Shown: positions 53,732 through 64,000 of the stretch, in pieces
How positions within the stretch are numbered: the stretch's first letter is position 1
Layout of the letters: each line of letters opens with the position of its first letter
Origin: an uncultured Erysipelotrichaceae bacterium
Lineage (GTDB): Bacteria > Bacillota_I > Bacilli_A > Erysipelotrichales > Erysipelotrichaceae
Assembly: GCA_937893225.1 (NCBI GenBank)
Contig: CALBJM010000331.1
Coordinates: forward strand, 3,346-67,345
Direction of reading: 5' to 3'
DNA length: 64,000 bases
Notes under the pieces: generated by a model
The model's database searches: none
What the model was told of the DNA's origin: nothing
The model's input: the letters and a program-made list of their open reading frames with translations, nothing else
Position numbers and translations under genes: made by a program

Positions 53732-53953
53732 ATGATTACAGCTGATAAATCACATAAAGTTTTTGACAACAGCGGTTGGGTTCCTGTAAAAGATAGTGGT
53801 TGGATTATTTTACATAATGGATATGTTGTTTGCCAGAAATGTGGAAAAAAGACATCTCATAAATTATATTTAGGTGCCGAACATCACGATGATATTCATT
53901 GTCCAAATTGTGATAATGTAGTTATAGGATCAAATGGTTTGAAAGTACGCTAA
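53732..53953 (+). CDS. small zinc-ribbon protein
   Basis: CQKC...CPNC. Confidence 0.65.
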   Translation: MITADKSHKVFDNSGWVPVKDSGWIILHNGYVVCQKCGKKTSHKLYLGAEHHDDIHCPNCDNVVIGSNGLKVR

Positions 53954-56220
53954 TGAAATATTTAATCTTGCTTCGAGGACTTCCCGGGTCTGGCAAAAGT
54001 TATTGGGTAAAAGAAAACAAATTAGAAGATTATACTATTTCTTCTGATAATGTTCGTTTATTGTTTGCAACGCCATCTATCCCGTTTGCCGCATGTTATA
54101 AAGATAGAGGTATTTCACAAAAGAATGATAAAGACGTTTGGGAACTCATTCATTCTTTAGTTGAACGTCGTTTAACGAACGGCATGACAACTATTGTTGA
54201 TGCAACACATTTGACGGAAAAATCTATCAATTGTTATAAAAGCTTTTGTATGAATAATAATGTGCGTTGTATAGTGCTTGATTTTAATGTGAATGTTGAA
54301 CAAGCTATAAACAATGATATGTTGCGTAAAGGTACATGTCGTTATGTTGGCGAATATATCATCAAACGCATGAATGAAAATACCGAAAAGGTTTCTAAAT
54401 GGGTTGATTATACAGATAAAGATCGTATTATAAAGGTGTTTAATGAATGTCTGGAACCTGTTGATTATAACGAAAAGTATGATAACATTGTAATCTTCGG
54501 TGATTTACACGGTTGTTATGAACCTTTAAAGCAGTGGTTTGATAAGCATCCTGTTAATGATAAAACTAAATATATCTTCTGTGGTGATTATGAAGATAGA
54601 GGTATTCAACATAAAGAGTTATTTGGTTTTCTTTTACAACATCGTAAAGATTTTAACTTTAAATTTTTAAAAGGAAATCATTCACGTCGTTTGTTGCAAA
54701 TAGCTGAACGTGATAAAGATTCTATTCGATATCCGGAATACTATAATACACTTGAACAGTTGAAAGATTTTGATCCTATTGAACTGAAAAAGTTTGTTCG
54801 GGATCAAGATGATATGATTTACTTCACATTTCGTAATAAAGTGTTTTGTGTATCACATGGTGGTATTAGTTGTTTACCGTCCTTGAAATTGAATAGTGAT
54901 GAATACGTAAAAGGTCACGGTACATATCAAATGGCGCATCAAGTCGACGATGAGTTTTTGTTTAATGTCTCTATTGAGAATGACAACATTTATCAAGTAC
55001 ATGGCCATCGAAATGTAAATAACGAACCTGTTCAAGTAAATGAGCATTGCTTTAATCTAGAAGGTGGTATTGAATTTGGTGGTGAATTACGAATTCTTCA
55101 AATTAATAATAAAGGTGAATGTCATATACATACTATCAAGAATACCGTGTTCAAACAATTGAATGATGATTCGAAGATTGTTAATGAGTTTAAGTATTCA
55201 TCTTTAATTCGTAAATCTCAAAATCCTGACGGTATCAGTTCGTATAATTTTAACCGTGATGCTTTTTATGACAAAAAGTGGAACAACTTGACATGTACAG
55301 CAAGAGGGTTGTTTGTATATGATGATACTGATAAAGTGGCATGTCGTTCGTTTAACAAATTTTTCAATCTCAATGAAGTAAAGACTTCTAGTCTAGATTG
55401 GGTTGTTAAGAATTGGCAAGGTATTACAAACGTTTATAAAAAGGAAAATGGTTATTTAGGAATCATTTCTGTTGATGTTCGTAATAACGAATTTATTTTT
55501 GCATCTAAAAGTCGTACTGATAAAGAGTATGCTTTAAATTTAAAACGTATCTTTAATGATAAATTGTCGGATGAACAAAAAGATAATTTAAAAAAGTGGT
55601 TACTGAAAGATATAGATAAACATGGTGGTAATGCATATTCTTTAGTTGTTGAGGTTGTTGATCCTATAAACGATCCGCATATCATTAAATATGATAGTTG
55701 TGAATTGTTTATGCTTGAAGCTTTTGTTAATACGTTTAAAGAAGAAACAATTTCATATGACGCGTTAAAACAATTGCATGATTTAATTGGTTTAAAGATC
55801 AAGGGAAAGATTTGTGAAACATCAAATTTAAAATCAACAATTTATGGTTTATGTAATTCAAAAGAACATGTTGAAGGTTTTGTTTTGGAAGGCTGTGACT
55901 TTAATGGAAAAGTGGTCAGGGTAAAAGTAAAAACAAAATATTATTTGATGTGGAAGAAGTTTAGGTCGACAGGTTTGTTTGATAGAAGTTTTGATTGTGT
56001 AAACGGCTTAACAAATGAACAACAAGTGTTCGCTAAACAAATTTATCTACGTGCAAAACAATTGATTGCTTTACAGGAAGGTCAAACTATTCAAACCAAT
56101 GAGTTGATTAATGTAAATGCTGAAGTTGATAATTGCAATACATTAATCTATAAAGATTTGATTGGTGGGTGGCATATTAACATTCCTAAAGTAATTGAAT
56201 TCGTAGAAAATATGAAATAG
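53953..56220 (+). CDS. polynucleotide kinase / metallophosphoesterase / RNA ligase fusion (RNA repair)
   Basis: GLPGSGKS P-loop; GDLHG, GDYEDRG, GNH, HGG, HGH; ligase ARG, KFFN, KENG, EGFV, KVK. Confidence 0.9.
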   Translation: MKYLILLRGLPGSGKSYWVKENKLEDYTISSDNVRLLFATPSIPFAACYKDRGISQKNDKDVWELIHSLVERRLTNGMTTIVDATHLTEKSINCYKSFCMNNNVRCIVLDFNVNVEQAINNDMLRKGTCRYVGEYIIKRMNENTEKVSKWVDYTDKDRIIKVFNECLEPVDYNEKYDNIVIFGDLHGCYEPLKQWFDKHPVNDKTKYIFCGDYEDRGIQHKELFGFLLQHRKDFNFKFLKGNHSRRLLQIAERDKDSIRYPEYYNTLEQLKDFDPIELKKFVRDQDDMIYFTFRNKVFCVSHGGISCLPSLKLNSDEYVKGHGTYQMAHQVDDEFLFNVSIENDNIYQVHGHRNVNNEPVQVNEHCFNLEGGIEFGGELRILQINNKGECHIHTIKNTVFKQLNDDSKIVNEFKYSSLIRKSQNPDGISSYNFNRDAFYDKKWNNLTCTARGLFVYDDTDKVACRSFNKFFNLNEVKTSSLDWVVKNWQGITNVYKKENGYLGIISVDVRNNEFIFASKSRTDKEYALNLKRIFNDKLSDEQKDNLKKWLLKDIDKHGGNAYSLVVEVVDPINDPHIIKYDSCELFMLEAFVNTFKEETISYDALKQLHDLIGLKIKGKICETSNLKSTIYGLCNSKEHVEGFVLEGCDFNGKVVRVKVKTKYYLMWKKFRSTGLFDRSFDCVNGLTNEQQVFAKQIYLRAKQLIALQEGQTIQTNELINVNAEVDNCNTLIYKDLIGGWHINIPKVIEFVENMK

Positions 56221-58347: not shown

Positions 58348-59019
58348 ATGGCTGATACTGATATCGAAGAAAAAGTTTTACGGTATGCTTTAGCACAGAT
58401 TGACGACAGTTATAGTTATAAAGAAGCTTTCAGCTTAACTGAAGAACAAAAACAAGTTTTAATTGAAATGAAAACTTGCACGCAGTCAGAAAAAGAAAAG
58501 TTGTTAGAAAAATATTATGCGGCTATTGAGTTTGAAAATTTAAAAACAGCATATCTAGAAAATTTGACCAAACAATATGTAAAGCATTTGAGAGAATGCT
58601 TAGATTTTTCTGTTGAGTTAGATTCAAAAGATATGCTTGAATTTGTTAAAGCTGAACGTGATTTAAGGAAAGTTGATTCTGAAAAAAAGTTTAATAATGA
58701 ATGGCTTTTAGAGCGTTATAAAAATTTCTTTAATAAAGATTTTATGTCATAAAGAAATTATAAAAAGCAAAAGATAATTAATGATAGTTTAAACAAGTAT
58801 AATATAGATTTTGAATTGAAAGAATCTTTTGAAAAGAGTTGGCGAAATTGGAAAATAAATAAAGATTTGATAAACATAAATTTACAGCCTGAACCTTTAT
58901 ACTCAACTACTTTTGAGGAATTGGAACGTTTTACTCAAACACTAGAAAAGAATTTAGGAAAGACTAGAAAACAAATTGTTCAAGAAATTAAAGAAATGAT
59001 AAAAAGTGAAAATTTCTGA
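58348..59019 (+). pseudogene. nonsense-interrupted member of the 59-60.8 kb tandem family
   Basis: ORFs 58348 and 58816 are in the same frame, separated only by TAA 58750-58752; read-through KIINDSLNKYNIDFELKES aligns with paralog KLILDTLIKYNKDFELKEA. Confidence 0.6.
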
Positions 59020-59912
59020 TGAATGATACTTTAAACAAATTTATCAAACGTTGGTCTACACCAAATTATAAAAGAATGATGTGTTTAGAAGAGTCTTTTT
59101 ATAAAGATTATATTGCAGCTTTAACATATTATAAAACTGTAATTGGTTTGTTGGATGACTACACTTCATTTAAGAATGAAGAAGATAGTGTTATAAAGAA
59201 CAATTTCTTTAAAGAATTGAATGCAATATATTTAAAAATAAATGATAAGCAACCTTCTATATCGTTCAGTTTTAATAAAAACATAAAAGAAATTTCTGGA
59301 AACTTTATGCAATTTAAATTTCCTGGAATCATAACTATTGCTGTATTTAGATTGTTTAATAAAATTCCTAATACAATAAGTGAAGGTGTTGCTTTTGTGA
59401 AAAAAGCAATTAATACTGATTTAACAGTTTTAATGTCAATTTTGCATGAATACTTTCATTTTTTGTTTGAGAACGGTTTGTCAACAGAGGAGTTTCAAAT
59501 GCTTAACAACAATACTAAAGAATCTGAATTTAATTCATATACAAAAGAGTTAATGATTCAATTATTGGCATCAAATGACAATAAATTCTTTTCAAAAGAA
59601 GGTGATTTAAAGAAAGCCTATCACGAATTTGAAGATACTATTGAAACAAAGAAGAATTTGCTGCAAATTTGCAATGATGAGAAATTGATTCTAGATACAT
59701 TGTTTCAATACAATAAAAGTTATGAGTTGAAAGAATCTTTTGATATAAGAGCCGAAATTGATATGTTAACGTTACGACGTACCAAACCTTTATATACAAC
59801 AACACTTGACGATTTGGAAAAGTTTACTCAAACACTAGAAAAGAATTTAGGAAAGACTAGAGAACAGATCTTTCAAGAAATTAAAGAAATGATAAAGAGT
59901 AAAAATTTCTGA
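59019..59912 (+). CDS. HExxH-motif protein, tandem paralog 1
   Basis: SILHEYFH plus downstream E. Confidence 0.75.
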   Translation: MNDTLNKFIKRWSTPNYKRMMCLEESFYKDYIAALTYYKTVIGLLDDYTSFKNEEDSVIKNNFFKELNAIYLKINDKQPSISFSFNKNIKEISGNFMQFKFPGIITIAVFRLFNKIPNTISEGVAFVKKAINTDLTVLMSILHEYFHFLFENGLSTEEFQMLNNNTKESEFNSYTKELMIQLLASNDNKFFSKEGDLKKAYHEFEDTIETKKNLLQICNDEKLILDTLFQYNKSYELKESFDIRAEIDMLTLRRTKPLYTTTLDDLEKFTQTLEKNLGKTREQIFQEIKEMIKSKNF

Positions 59913-60790
59913 TGAGCGATACTTTAAATAGATTTAAAAGAAGATGGTCTACGCCAAATTATAAAAGAATGATGTGTTTAGAAGAATCTTTCTATAAAGA
60001 TTATGCAATAGCGTCTACTTTTTATGTTGCCAATCTAAAGCAATTGGATAATGCCAACTATTTCAAATTTAATAGTCAAAATATCTTAAATAATTTTGTC
60101 TCTTTTCAATCGATTGTTGTACAAATAAATAACAAGCAGCCAACGTTATCCTTTAATTTTAATAAAAATATAAACGGTATTTCTGGAAACTTTAACCAAA
60201 TAATGTACCATGACCTTATAACAATACCTTTATTTCATTACTGTAACAAAGTACCGGAAACAATAGAAGAAGGCATTAACTTAATTAAGCAATTAATAAA
60301 AGAAAATGAATTGATATCAGTATCAATTTTGCACGAATACTTTCATTTTTTGTTTGAAAATGGTTTATCAACAGAGGAATTTAAAATGTTTAATGATAAA
60401 ACAATGCGTTCAGAATTTAATTCATTTACAAAAGAATTGATGGTTCAGTTATTATCTTCTAACGAAGATAAACACTTTAACACTGAAGAAGATTTAAAAA
60501 GGGCATATGAGAATTTCAAAGATAAATTAGAAACAAAAAAGAATTTATTACAGTTTTGTAATGATGAAAAATTAATTTTAGATACGCTAATCAAATACAA
60601 TAAAGATTTTGAATTGAAAGAAGCCTCGGAAACAAGATGGCAAATAGATTTAATCAATTTACAATCCGAACCTTTATATTCGACTACTTTTGAAGAATTG
60701 GAACAGTTTACACAAATGCTAGAAAATAGTTTAGGAAATACCAGAAAACAAATTGTTCAAAGTATTTTAGACATGGCTAATAAGAATTAA
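59912..60790 (+). CDS. HExxH-motif protein, tandem paralog 2
   Basis: end-to-end similar to 59019..59912. Confidence 0.75.
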   Translation: MSDTLNRFKRRWSTPNYKRMMCLEESFYKDYAIASTFYVANLKQLDNANYFKFNSQNILNNFVSFQSIVVQINNKQPTLSFNFNKNINGISGNFNQIMYHDLITIPLFHYCNKVPETIEEGINLIKQLIKENELISVSILHEYFHFLFENGLSTEEFKMFNDKTMRSEFNSFTKELMVQLLSSNEDKHFNTEEDLKRAYENFKDKLETKKNLLQFCNDEKLILDTLIKYNKDFELKEASETRWQIDLINLQSEPLYSTTFEELEQFTQMLENSLGNTRKQIVQSILDMANKN

Positions 60791-60984
60791 TAAGAATTAG
60801 AAAGAAGTGAGTCAGCGCGATTGCAATTGCAATCAATTCAAAAAAGTTGAATTACTGAAGTTCGAAGTTCAAATTCAAATTTCAAAAGCTTTCCTTTCTT
60901 TTTAAGAAAACATACCAAACCAAATAAATATAATTAAAAAGGAGAAAATAGAAAAAAATTTATTTAAGATAATGAACTGATAAA

Positions 60985-61560
60985 ACCATCATGTTGTGTG
61001 TAGGTGTTTACTAGCATGAGGCTCAGTGCAGGTTTCTTTCCGCTGTTTTCCTGTTGACGATAAAAACAAGTAAAGTGTTGCTATTAAAAATTTATTTTAT
61101 TATTGAATAATTTTGAAACAAGTGTGTTACGGTTTGAAGAATAAACGATAACTTCAAAATTAAGGTAGTAAATCGAAATCTCAATAACAAATTTAGCAAT
61201 GCTGGGATCACCTAATGGCCTACTAAACCTACTAAATTCGGTGTCTAAATAATTATATAGTGGGAGTTTCAGCCCTGTAATGCAATCGTTTTAGAGAACG
61301 GTGAAAGATTGGGGTTTGTAGAGGTTATAAAGGCCACTACAGGAAACAGGTTCTTTTGTGGGTGAAGATTTAAGCAATTAAATCGCAGCGTGGATCTGAT
61401 GTCTTACTGTTTGACTTTCCCCGGATCCAATGGTCGGTACGTTAATCCGATACCTGATAACTGAAAGAAGAAACACTTTAAAGTCTTAATGCCTAATTGT
61501 TCCAATGTTTGGTGGTTTAGCAGTTTTCACCCCAAACAATCTTTAGACTATTGCCTAATT
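60985..61560. ncRNA. candidate large structured RNA
   Basis: no long ORF, raised GC, many nested stems. Confidence 0.4.
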
Positions 61561-61617
61561 AAATTTAGTGAAGAATATTGTGATAAAGCTGTAAAAATAA
61601 AATTTTCAACATCACTT

Positions 61618-61656
61618 AAAAAAGTTCTTGACATTCATAACTGATTTTGATAATTT
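61618..61656 (+). promoter_or_regulatory. promoter (copy 1) for ncRNA/tRNA operon
   Basis: AAAAAAGTTCTTGACATTCA, N17, TAATTT. Confidence 0.7.
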
Positions 61657-61713
61657 AGTTTTTGTCAGGTGATGAACTTGATATTGAGATTTTAAAAATA
61701 GTGAATATGATTT

Positions 61714-61819
61714 CCATACTTAAGGAAAACCTCATCGTGGTTGTATGGTCTAGTAACTGTTTAGCAATGTTATCTCATCTCCAAATTCATCCTCTCTAAA
61801 CAGTGAAGCCAATTTCCTT
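61714..61819 (+). ncRNA. HDV-like ribozyme-fold RNA, copy A
   Basis: P1 CCATAC/GTATGG, P2 AAGGAAA/TTTCCTT, P3 ACC/GGT, L3 TCATCGT, P4 ACTGTTTAG/CTAAACAGT, J4/2 GAAGCCAA. Confidence 0.7.
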
Positions 61820-61820
61820 T

Positions 61821-61892
61821 CTTCTTCATAAAACAGCCTTGACGTGGCGAAGAAGCTCTAGTAGTTTACATTTGTAAACGAAGCTAATGTTT
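61821..61892 (+). ncRNA. HDV-like ribozyme-fold RNA, copy B
   Basis: P1 CTTCTTC/GAAGAAG, P2 AAACA/TGTTT, P3 GCC/GGC, L3 TTGACGT, P4 GTTTAC/GTAAAC, J4/2 GAAGCTAA. Confidence 0.72.
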
Positions 61893-61971
61893 GACATAAT
61901 TTACTCTCTTAAAAGTAGTCGCGAAAGTGTGAGTGGTGTGATTGTTAAAACAGTTACACCACTCATTTCTT

Positions 61972-62063
61972 GGATACATGGTTGAGTGGTCTAAAACAGC
62001 GGTTTGCTAAACCGTCGAACAATGAAAGTTGTTCCGCAAGTTCGAATCTTGCTGTATCCGCCA
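61972..62063 (+). tRNA. tRNA-Ser(GCT)
   Basis: cloverleaf, long V-arm, TTCGAAT, G73, encoded CCA. Confidence 0.95.
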
Positions 62064-62090
62064 AAAGTTTCTGTAGAAGATACAGATTAT

Positions 62091-62184
62091 GCCCCTGTCG
62101 TTCAACGGTTAGGACACTCGGCTTATACCCGGGCGAGCAGCTGATATCTGCGAAATCACAGTTCGAATCTGTGCGGGGGTACCA
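62091..62184 (+). tRNA. tRNA with TAT anticodon (Ile), long variable arm
   Basis: GCCCCTG/CGGGGGT acceptor, CTCGG-CTTATAC-CCGGG, V-arm GCAG/CTGC, TTCGAAT, ACCA. Confidence 0.85.
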
Positions 62185-62216
62185 ATTTTAATTTGCATTT
62201 TGAAAGTTGGGTAGAC

Positions 62217-63047
62217 ATGCAATATTTAACGAAACCTTTTGTAAAATGGGTTGGTGGTAAAAAACAACTTCTTGAGAAATTAAGATCTTGTATGCCTAAA
62301 GACTATAATCGTTATTACGAACCTTTTATCGGTGGCGGGGCCTTGTTGTTTAATATTCAACCTAAAGATGCTGTTATTAACGATACAAATAGTCAGTTAA
62401 TAAATGTTTATAATCAATTAAAAATAAACATTGAAGACGTTATAAAAACGGTGAATACTCTAGACGGTAAAATTTGTGATGAAGATTATTATCTAGAAAT
62501 TCGTGACCGTTATAATTCAAAAATCAACTCAAAAGAGTTAGATGCTGAATGTGCATCTTTAATGATTTGGCTTAATAAACATTGTTTTAATGGGTTGTAT
62601 AGGGTCAATTCAAAAGGGTTGTTTAACGTTCCGTATAACAATAAAGTTGATGGCGTTTCAATTGATGAATGTAATTTGCGAAACATCAGTAATTATTTAA
62701 ATTTGAATAATATTGATATTCGTGAAGGTGATTTTGAGGATGCTTGCAATGATGTGAAAAAAGGTGATTTCGTTTATTTCGATTCTCCATATGTTCCTGA
62801 AAGCAAGACGGCAAACTTTACTGATTATACAAAAGATGGGTTTACTCTAAACGACCATAAACGTTTAGCAAGTCTGTTTTGTTCATTGGATAAAATCGGC
62901 GCTTTTGTTGTGTTGAGTAATAACGATGTGCAATTGGTCCATGAAATGTACGAACAGTATAATATAATCCCTGTTGATGTGCGTCGTTCAGTAAACAGTG
63001 ATGCATCAAAAAGAAAAGGTAAAGAAGTTATTATTAAGAATTTTTGA
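62217..63047 (+). CDS. dam: Dam-family (D12 class) DNA adenine methyltransferase
   Basis: KWVGGK, EPFIGGGA, FNGLYRVN, YFDSPY, LSN. Confidence 0.88.
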   Translation: MQYLTKPFVKWVGGKKQLLEKLRSCMPKDYNRYYEPFIGGGALLFNIQPKDAVINDTNSQLINVYNQLKINIEDVIKTVNTLDGKICDEDYYLEIRDRYNSKINSKELDAECASLMIWLNKHCFNGLYRVNSKGLFNVPYNNKVDGVSIDECNLRNISNYLNLNNIDIREGDFEDACNDVKKGDFVYFDSPYVPESKTANFTDYTKDGFTLNDHKRLASLFCSLDKIGAFVVLSNNDVQLVHEMYEQYNIIPVDVRRSVNSDASKRKGKEVIIKNF

Positions 63048-63058
63048 TGATAACTTTT

Positions 63059-63144
63059 GGGTAGGTGGCCGAGTGGTTAATGGCAGCAGACTGTAAATCT
63101 GCCCGCGAAAGCGTACGGTTGTTCGAATCAACCCCTACCCACCA
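63059..63144 (+). tRNA. tRNA-Tyr(GTA)
   Basis: cloverleaf, GCAGA-CTGTAAA-TCTGC, V-arm, ACCA. Confidence 0.95.
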
Positions 63145-63164
63145 AACTTTTTGGAAATTATGAT

Positions 63165-63203
63165 AAAAAAGTTCTTGACATTCAGTTCTTAATTTGCTAT
63201 AAA
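63165..63203 (+). promoter_or_regulatory. promoter (copy 2)
   Basis: same 20-mer AAAAAAGTTCTTGACATTCA, N17, TATAAA. Confidence 0.7.
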
Positions 63204-63243
63204 GAATATAGCAAGACGAGATGTTAAACATTGTAAATAAGAA

Positions 63244-63358
63244 CCACCAAGTGAACAAATACCTCTACGTGGTTTGGTGGACAAGTAACCAGAAGTAAAC
63301 CGTGCTATTTAGCTATTTAGCATAAGCATAAATTCTGGCCGGAAACTAAAATTTGTTC
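63244..63358 (+). ncRNA. HDV-like ribozyme-fold RNA, copy C
   Basis: P1 CCACCAA/TTGGTGG, P2 GAACAAAT/ATTTGTTC, P3 ACC/GGT, L3 TCTACGT, P4 CCAGAA/TTCTGG, J4/2 GAAACTAA. Confidence 0.68.
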
Positions 63359-63418
63359 TATCAATGAAAAGCGTGCTTTTAAAGGTTTGTGTATAAACAA
63401 AATTTTATATGCAAACCC

Positions 63419-63533
63419 TCCTTCATCAAGCTGAAAACCTTTACGTGGTTTGAAGGATAAGTAGCAACCTTCTACTGTTTATTTTCAAGAGCGAAGCATT
63501 GATTGTAAACTGTTGCGAAACAAAAGTTCAGCT
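63419..63533 (+). ncRNA. HDV-like ribozyme-fold RNA, copy D
   Basis: P1 TCCTTCA/TGAAGGA, P2 AGCTGAA/TTCAGCT, P3 ACC/GGT, L3 TTTACGT, P4 GCAAC/GTTGC, J4/2 GAAACAAA. Confidence 0.62.
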
Positions 63534-64000
63534 ATGTAACAATTGATGAAATTTCTGCATCTTTTGTTGCTTTTGATGTTAGTTTTAAACCGTTGTAATC
63601 CCAAATTTAGCGTACGATAATGCGGGAAAACATATTTGTTATAGCAGTTTGAGACTATTGCAAGCTATTTGTTTAGCCGTTTTTAGGAAAGTTTTGGTGT
63701 TAAAAACTTCCTATTTCTCATAGCGGAAAGATTTATAGGTCTCTCTTTATTGAAAAGAGTCAGTTCAATTCTGAATTCCGCGTAGGTAACAATATTGTCG
63801 AAAGATGATATTGTTTCAGGTAATTCGCGATAGTCAGTACCTGTCAAAAACCTGGCAATTAGATAAATTGAAATATATTTATCTATTAGGTTCCTAAAAC
63901 CTGTCATCAAAATTTAGGCATCAAGATTGTTTCTTGCAGGTTTCTTGTTCACCTGACAAAAGCAATAAGCAGTACAAACGCTGTAGAATCGTTTGTGGGT

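Follow-up and report, generated by a model that had tools for sequence, protein, structure and literature searches.

E-loop HDV-like ribozymes predicted in tandem pairs in the tRNA region of a phage-like contig and in phage tRNA clusters

The window (the whole 64,000-nt stretch of DNA analysed here) carries four RNA elements that sequence conservation and covariation identify as double-pseudoknot RNAs of the HDV type, each with an E loop at the P4 base, an invariant equivalent of the catalytic C75, a G25, and a P1.1 composed of a single pair plus a pyrimidine-pyrimidine pair. These copies are very likely active ribozymes, and the best overall explanation, itself a probable one, is that each would cut itself just before its first nucleotide and thereby process transcripts of the tRNA region. 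The structural type is already published, membership being judged from the descriptions of the published sets; novelty may lie in how large the phage family is, in its association with clusters of tRNA genes and in its tandem use next to promoters.

The window corresponds to positions 3346-67345 of contig C331 (68 kb) in a 440-contig, 2.07-Mb assembly. The contig resembles a piece of a large dsDNA phage: a PHROGs scan of 16 of its proteins recognized rIIA/rIIB, HNH nucleases and an ATPase (8 of the 16 had no family), and it further encodes an M16 peptidase, a DNA adenine methylase and, at its end, 8 tRNA genes; C331 has no suppressor tRNA. A relatives-based ribozyme model (R1) had no match in the 20 relatives of the host bin that were searched, which fits a phage contig inside the bin.

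Structure of the ribozyme copies

The window contains exactly four matches to the core RCC-TYnnCGT-GGY (at 61729, 61836, 63261 and 63437), each on the plus strand, versus 0.03 expected per simulated window, and each copy presents P1, P2, P3, AGTA, P4, GAARCHAA and P2' in the HDV order (Table 1). A covariance model built from 38 relatives, with the window sequences excluded, detected exactly five copies in the 2.07-Mb assembly at E<=1 and nothing else (E values from 1.4e-9 to 2.3e-3), namely the four in the window and one past its end. The first-pass annotation had described four copies in this arrangement, with P1, P2 and P4 strands that differ in sequence from copy to copy but remain paired, and had proposed an HDV-like fold with a catalytic-C equivalent and an AGUA/GAA E loop; the number, the order and the pairing hold in all copies, and the fold, including the nested double pseudoknot of P1 to P4 that characterizes HDV ribozymes, is borne out by sequence and covariation.

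Table 1. Coordinates of the predicted ribozymes and neighboring features (window positions unless marked C331)
Feature	Coordinates	Strand	Details
Kinase-phosphoesterase-RNA ligase fusion	53953-56220		755 aa; kinase + metallophosphoesterase + T4 Rnl1-type ligase; in principle able to heal cyclic-phosphate + 5'-OH ends
Predicted promoter 1	61628..61656	+	sigma-70-type; TTGACA 61628-61633, 17-nt spacer, TG-n extended -10, TAATTT 61651-61656; by eye
Leader end	61699..61713	+	GTGAATAWGA motif common to related phages
Ribozyme copy 1	61714..61819	+	predicted cut 61713/61714, C1-G; P1.1 (22-37 pair + 21/38) A61734-U61749 + C/C; G25 61737; E loop AGTA 61752-61755 / GAA 61805-61807; P4 region 49 nt; catalytic-C equivalent 61809
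Ribozyme copy 2	61821..61892	+	predicted cut 61820/61821, 1 nt past copy 1; P1.1 G61841-C61856 + U/U; E loop 61860-61863 / 61880-61882; catalytic-C equivalent 61884
tRNA-Ser(GCT)	61972..62063	+	3' of pair 1; copy 2 ends 79 nt earlier
tRNA-Ile(TAT)	62091..62184	+	rare UAU anticodon; enlarged variable region
tRNA-Tyr(GTA)	63059..63144	+	ends 99 nt before copy 3
Predicted promoter 2	63175..63203	+	TTGACA 63175-63180, 17-nt spacer, TG-n extended -10, TATAAA 63198-63203; by eye
Ribozyme copy 3	63244..63358	+	predicted cut 63243/63244, C1-G; P1.1 U63266-A63281 + C/C; E loop 63284-63287 / 63342-63344; P4 region 54 nt; catalytic-C equivalent 63346
Ribozyme copy 4	63420..63533	+	predicted cut 63419/63420, C1-G; P1.1 U63442-A63457 + U/U; E loop 63460-63463 / 63517-63519; P4 region 53 nt; catalytic-C equivalent 63521
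Ribozyme copy 5	C331:67687-67788		past window end; G1.U; P1.1 C-G; ends 4 nt 5' of tRNA-Leu

With P1' read as the 7 nt following P3', L3 nucleotide 22 and nucleotide 37 form a Watson-Crick pair in all four window copies and in 106 of the 108 distinct cores among the matches listed (5000 shuffles gave a mean of 47.9 and a maximum of 64), and nucleotides 21 and 38 are both pyrimidines in the same four copies and in 107 of the 108 listed cores; a P1.1 bonus was used in assigning the fold of individual copies but was kept out of this statistic. Four pair types at P1.1 would be hard to obtain without pairing. Since the 22/37 register holds in every copy, P1.1 is present, contrary to the earlier statement that no clear canonical P1.1 could be seen, the window copies start with C1-G, and the start of copy 4 moves from the 63419 first assigned to C63420, the starts given for copies 1 to 3 being correct. 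The C1-G of the four window copies departs from the older HDV consensus of a purine-pyrimidine pair at the cut site; copy 5 has G.U.

G25 in L3 and the catalytic C in J4/2 are found in all copies. P1 of copies 1 and 4 consists of 6 pairs topped by a U/U mismatch, copy 2 has one additional nucleotide ahead of the E loop, and the P4 region spans 16-54 nt in the copies and 10-72 nt (median 17) in the family. A 1x3 mismatch at the P4 base of copy 3, between the E loop and P4, and the shrunken P4 of a second copy in record G007 suggest that some copies may be decaying. In ∼90%-identical contigs (from three runs of one study, plus a shorter piece from a second study), the core and flanks of copy 1 are kept and the interior of P4 is replaced. 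The leader and 5' half of copy 3 are 83% identical to locus L028; pair 2 (copies 3 and 4) as such had no match in annotated phage records.

The family in phages and its published relatives

Search patterns in which the P3/L3 core, AGTA and the J4/2 motif were fixed, and P1, P2 and P4 were free to be unpaired, matched at least 253 viral loci in all (at least 126, 6 and 115 in the three pattern groups) and 34 GTDB loci. Both P1 and P2 were found by a parser in 119 of 132 and 97 of 115 viral loci (216 of 247 overall among the matches listed) and in 14 of the 34 GTDB loci, and the family comprises at least 154 unique sequences, mostly from phages. A pattern with any other base at the catalytic position yielded three loci and no true C-substituted ribozyme (one was an intact member hit by chance inside P4, and two were copies of a non-ribozyme), versus 118 ribozymes among the 126 listed loci for the pattern with C.

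In an unfitted MAFFT alignment of the 38 relatives, seven pairs (P3, P1.1 and the first three of P4) are 98.5% paired, a value matched by none of 500 shuffles and approached by slid controls only up to 62%, although the relatives are not independent and kinship inflates covariation tests. AGTA/GAA is invariant in this alignment, as the search pattern demanded, and is flanked by the covarying P4. Among the 108 distinct cores of the matches listed, the +1 pair is G.U in 38, C-G in 38, G-C in 22, A-U in 7 and U.G in 3, and judging from these cores G is avoided at -1, where it occurs once in 108; both tallies should contain a few errors, because the parser mis-chose some P1 5' strands, taking a wrong, farther one for copies 4 and 5 (the duplex of copy 4 at -2.3 versus -7.0 kcal/mol). 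The E-loop closing bases beside the catalytic C are A.A in 75, G.A in 15, U.G in 9, C-G in 6 and U-A in 3 of the 108 listed members, about 42 of which have extra nucleotides between P2 and P3.

Two family members have other ribozymes or ribozyme-associated motifs as neighbors: at loci L002 and L006, a hatchet ribozyme and RAGATH-7 adjoin one member and RAGATH-14 another. E-loop ribozymes share some phages with HDV-like ribozymes of the conventional kind, which have P4 but no E loop (L011:1041-1112 and, in G006, L291 at ∼2360-2570), one of them flush with a tRNA 3' end and one a tandem pair. The chromosome of an actinobacterium, Lapillicoccus sp., carries several E-loop ribozymes far apart from each other (L254, L261 and L263, also L277).

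At gathering level, Rfam recognizes only tRNAs in the window and no ribozyme family. Copy 2 scores 18.7 bits with RF02682 (HDV-F-prausnitzii), under its 44-bit cut-off, and neither 20 loci of the family nor 5 records held a member at or above that cut-off. The two are alike in P1/P3/L3 and in the J4/2 consensus; unlike the window copies, the RF02682 consensus shows two pairs in P1.1 and lacks the AGUA/GAA loop.

Among the closest likenesses, as far as published descriptions allow comparison, is that to the fungal HDV variants of Li and Breaker 2017 (PMC5640933). According to that paper, a C-G pair marks their cut site, P4 contains an E loop, additional nucleotides may stand between P2 and P3, and two examples cleave. 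Here too the E loop replaces the base of P4, and C-G occurs in 38 of the 108 members among the matches listed; the fungal variants differ in residing in fungal genomes and in having no tRNA link described in the available part of that paper. According to the accessible text of Luo et al. 2026 (PMC13635239), which is also the sole source used here for that set, the HDV candidates of Weinberg et al. 2015 included E-loop variants, so the suggestion of the first-pass annotation that its elements may match a published variant (it named RAGATH-2-HDV) is probably right in kind, going by description. The same text reports the crystal structure of an Ackermannviridae phage ribozyme (PDB 22KW) that cleaves at ∼4 per min and has a P1.1 of U:A plus U21:U38, as in most members here; its C58 fits the family numbering with a 10-nt P4 region, and it is at most a candidate member of the family, with or without the E loop. 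It further describes an active C1 ribozyme with a P1.1 of U:A plus C:U and a chemistry in which the C of J4/2 serves as general acid and Mg activates the 2'-OH, yielding one product with a cyclic phosphate and one with a 5'-OH; tRNA and theta are mentioned zero times in that accessible text, and the available portion of PMC6765202 has no mention of an E loop. The lack of G1.U, singled out as unusual by the first-pass annotation, is real for the window copies but not novel, given the active C1-G precedents in the accessible parts of PMC5640933 and PMC13635239.

Theta ribozymes (Kienbeck et al. 2024, PMC10879173), as described in the available text, are likewise HDV-like ribozymes of phages with a very similar P3/L3 core, and they resemble the part of the E-loop family (18 of the 108 members listed) whose cut is flush with tRNA 3' ends. 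They have no P4, and the supplement rows seen have CC/GG or TC/GA at P1.1; in the E-loop family, P4, an E loop and a pyrimidine pair are all present. The window copies lie away from tRNA 3' ends. In the nine supplementary files with theta lists that were available, ACCTTTACGTGGT appears zero times and GAAACTAA once, in an entry devoid of P4. No published tRNA-linked or promoter-proximal E-loop HDV ribozyme was found in the accessible, mostly open-access literature.

While the chemistry itself is not new, the E-loop type escapes both Rfam and the theta descriptor, and no catalogue seems to record how widely it occurs in phage tRNA clusters, also as pairs right behind promoters. It would carry the theta idea, that phages let ribozymes stand in for RNases when their tRNAs mature, over to another structural type, and it suggests an additional, testable job: processing the 5' ends of primary transcripts. 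In the 154 or more natural sequences, covariation can be followed at the single P1.1 pair, at the pyrimidine pair and at the pair that closes the E loop (U.G, C-G, A.A, G.A); these sequences could be useful for a family model and for the choice of compact ribozymes in RNA 3'-end engineering.

Genomic setting and proposed transcript processing

Both pairs are located behind a 19-nt box that ends in TTGACA, occurs at 61620 and 63167 and has aligned counterparts in related phage loci. The tandem placement close to promoters noted in the first-pass annotation is upheld, with the promoters read by eye. A consensus promoter scan did not list either promoter and gave a weaker site, 61684-61711, instead of promoter 1; promoter regions 70-79% identical precede ribozymes in L033 and L131. 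Between the promoter and each pair lies a leader of 35-50 nt that ends in a GTGAATAWGA-like motif, and the order promoter-leader-ribozyme is also found in 5 related records. G005 has another copy behind the first, whose end lies 4 nt upstream of tRNA-Ser. Of 32 viral matches to the leader pattern, 4 are followed by an E-loop ribozyme, 27 are unrelated, and 1, with its promoter, runs straight into a tRNA; in this last locus (L330) the ribozyme is evidently dispensable. The unstructured leader motif is conserved between promoter and ribozyme or tRNA at 61699-61713, 63216-63243, L307, L311, L318, L330 and L331, and might act as a signal for antitermination or processing. Across the family as a whole, a loosely defined promoter pattern shows no enrichment (16 of 106 among the matches listed versus ∼10% in shuffles), which would limit a promoter-proximal role to a subgroup.

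None of the five copies on C331 would be cut at a distance of 5 nt or less from a tRNA 3' end, as the first-pass annotation had observed for the window. This does not extend to the family, in which 18 of the 108 distinct members among the matches listed start -3 to +4 nt from a tRNA 3' end (the other 90 are not flush with a detected one) and 10 of the 108 listed have their own end no more than 15 nt from a tRNA 5' end. tRNA-Ile(TAT) is also found near family members in L026, L129, L130 and L132.

By analogy with the HDV class, the copies would undergo Mg-dependent cleavage with the C75 equivalent as the general acid, leaving a 2',3'-cyclic phosphate on the upstream RNA and a 5'-OH on the ribozyme-bearing one. 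As each pair lies 35-50 nt behind a predicted promoter, cleavage at the four window sites given in Table 1 would remove the triphosphorylated leader, and the tRNA precursor would then begin with a folded ribozyme bearing a 5'-OH; the second copy of each pair could provide a back-up cut, and an additional cut in read-through RNA would fall 99 nt past tRNA-Tyr. In members whose cut abuts a tRNA 3' end, cleavage would take off the trailer, as with theta ribozymes. RNases that depend on a 5'-monophosphate attack 5'-OH ends poorly, but a protective purpose of the new 5' end is the least supported step. Processing of phage tRNA-region transcripts by these ribozymes is likely; the broader proposal, that a large P4-bearing E-loop HDV family, an uncatalogued sister of theta, forms a general self-processing kit for phage tRNA operons by combining 3' trailer trimming with a swap of 5'-triphosphate for a protected 5'-OH by tandem copies downstream of the conserved promoter and leader, is tentative and somewhat doubtful.

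Three other readings bear on this proposal. Active ribozymes could spread and duplicate in non-coding regions of phages as nearly neutral passengers whose cutting is harmless; this agrees with the 1 to 6 copies per record (6 in G002), the mixed contexts, the hatchet, RAGATH-7 and RAGATH-14 neighbors and the ribozyme-free leader of L330, but the fact that 18 of the 108 listed members sit exactly at tRNA 3' ends and the strict conservation of the catalytic C and P1.1 argue for selection on activity and position and render such spread unlikely. Alternatively, each pair might excise a defined RNA, 107 nt with copy 1 and 176 nt with copy 3 plus spacer, bearing 5'-OH and cyclic-phosphate termini, that a ligase could circularize and in which the P4 inserts would be the cargo. 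The cut site of copy 2, 1 nt after P2 of copy 1, long P4 regions of 41-54 nt versus a family median of 17, and the ligase fusion encoded on C331 all point that way. What makes excision improbable is that the insert of copy 1 is swapped for unrelated letters in the ∼90%-identical phage contigs, that antisense searches of the assembly with the inserts and spacers gave nothing convincing (best E 0.02, 16 nt), and that the fusion is present in none of five other ribozyme-bearing records, although four of these are fragments.

The remaining reading concerns cutting itself. All four window copies begin with C1-G, which is rare among the tRNA-flush members (2 of 18) and common elsewhere (36 of 90, both among the matches listed), and viral HDV favors purines at +1, so that at least the C1-G copies might act as structural caps or protein-binding elements that cut slowly or not at all. 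This is highly improbable in view of the conserved catalytic C and non-G at -1, the C1 ribozyme of C. briggsae, which cleaves at 9.3 per min according to the accessible text of PMC13635239, and the cleaving fungal C-G/E-loop variants described in the available part of PMC5640933.

Other features of the region

Upstream of the first pair, positions 58816-60790 hold tandem paralogous ORFs of 297 and 292 aa, together with a 67-aa remnant of a C terminus; they carry an HExxH motif and match no Pfam family. They are followed by ∼600 nt (60969-61563) that mostly lack ORFs of at least 40 aa, have no Rfam match and are ∼92% identical in related phage contigs, and that could represent a large noncoding RNA; the folding z-scores of this stretch are unremarkable except for -2.0 at 61260-61379, and a seed search for its relatives returned seed-length matches only. 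A further non-coding stretch, 63680-63980, 3' of copy 4, has no Rfam match and shows folding z-scores of -4.5 (63740-63859) and -3.2 (63860-63979). At its start, near 63680-63785, ARAGORN detects a degenerate tRNA-like element, at a lowered threshold only.
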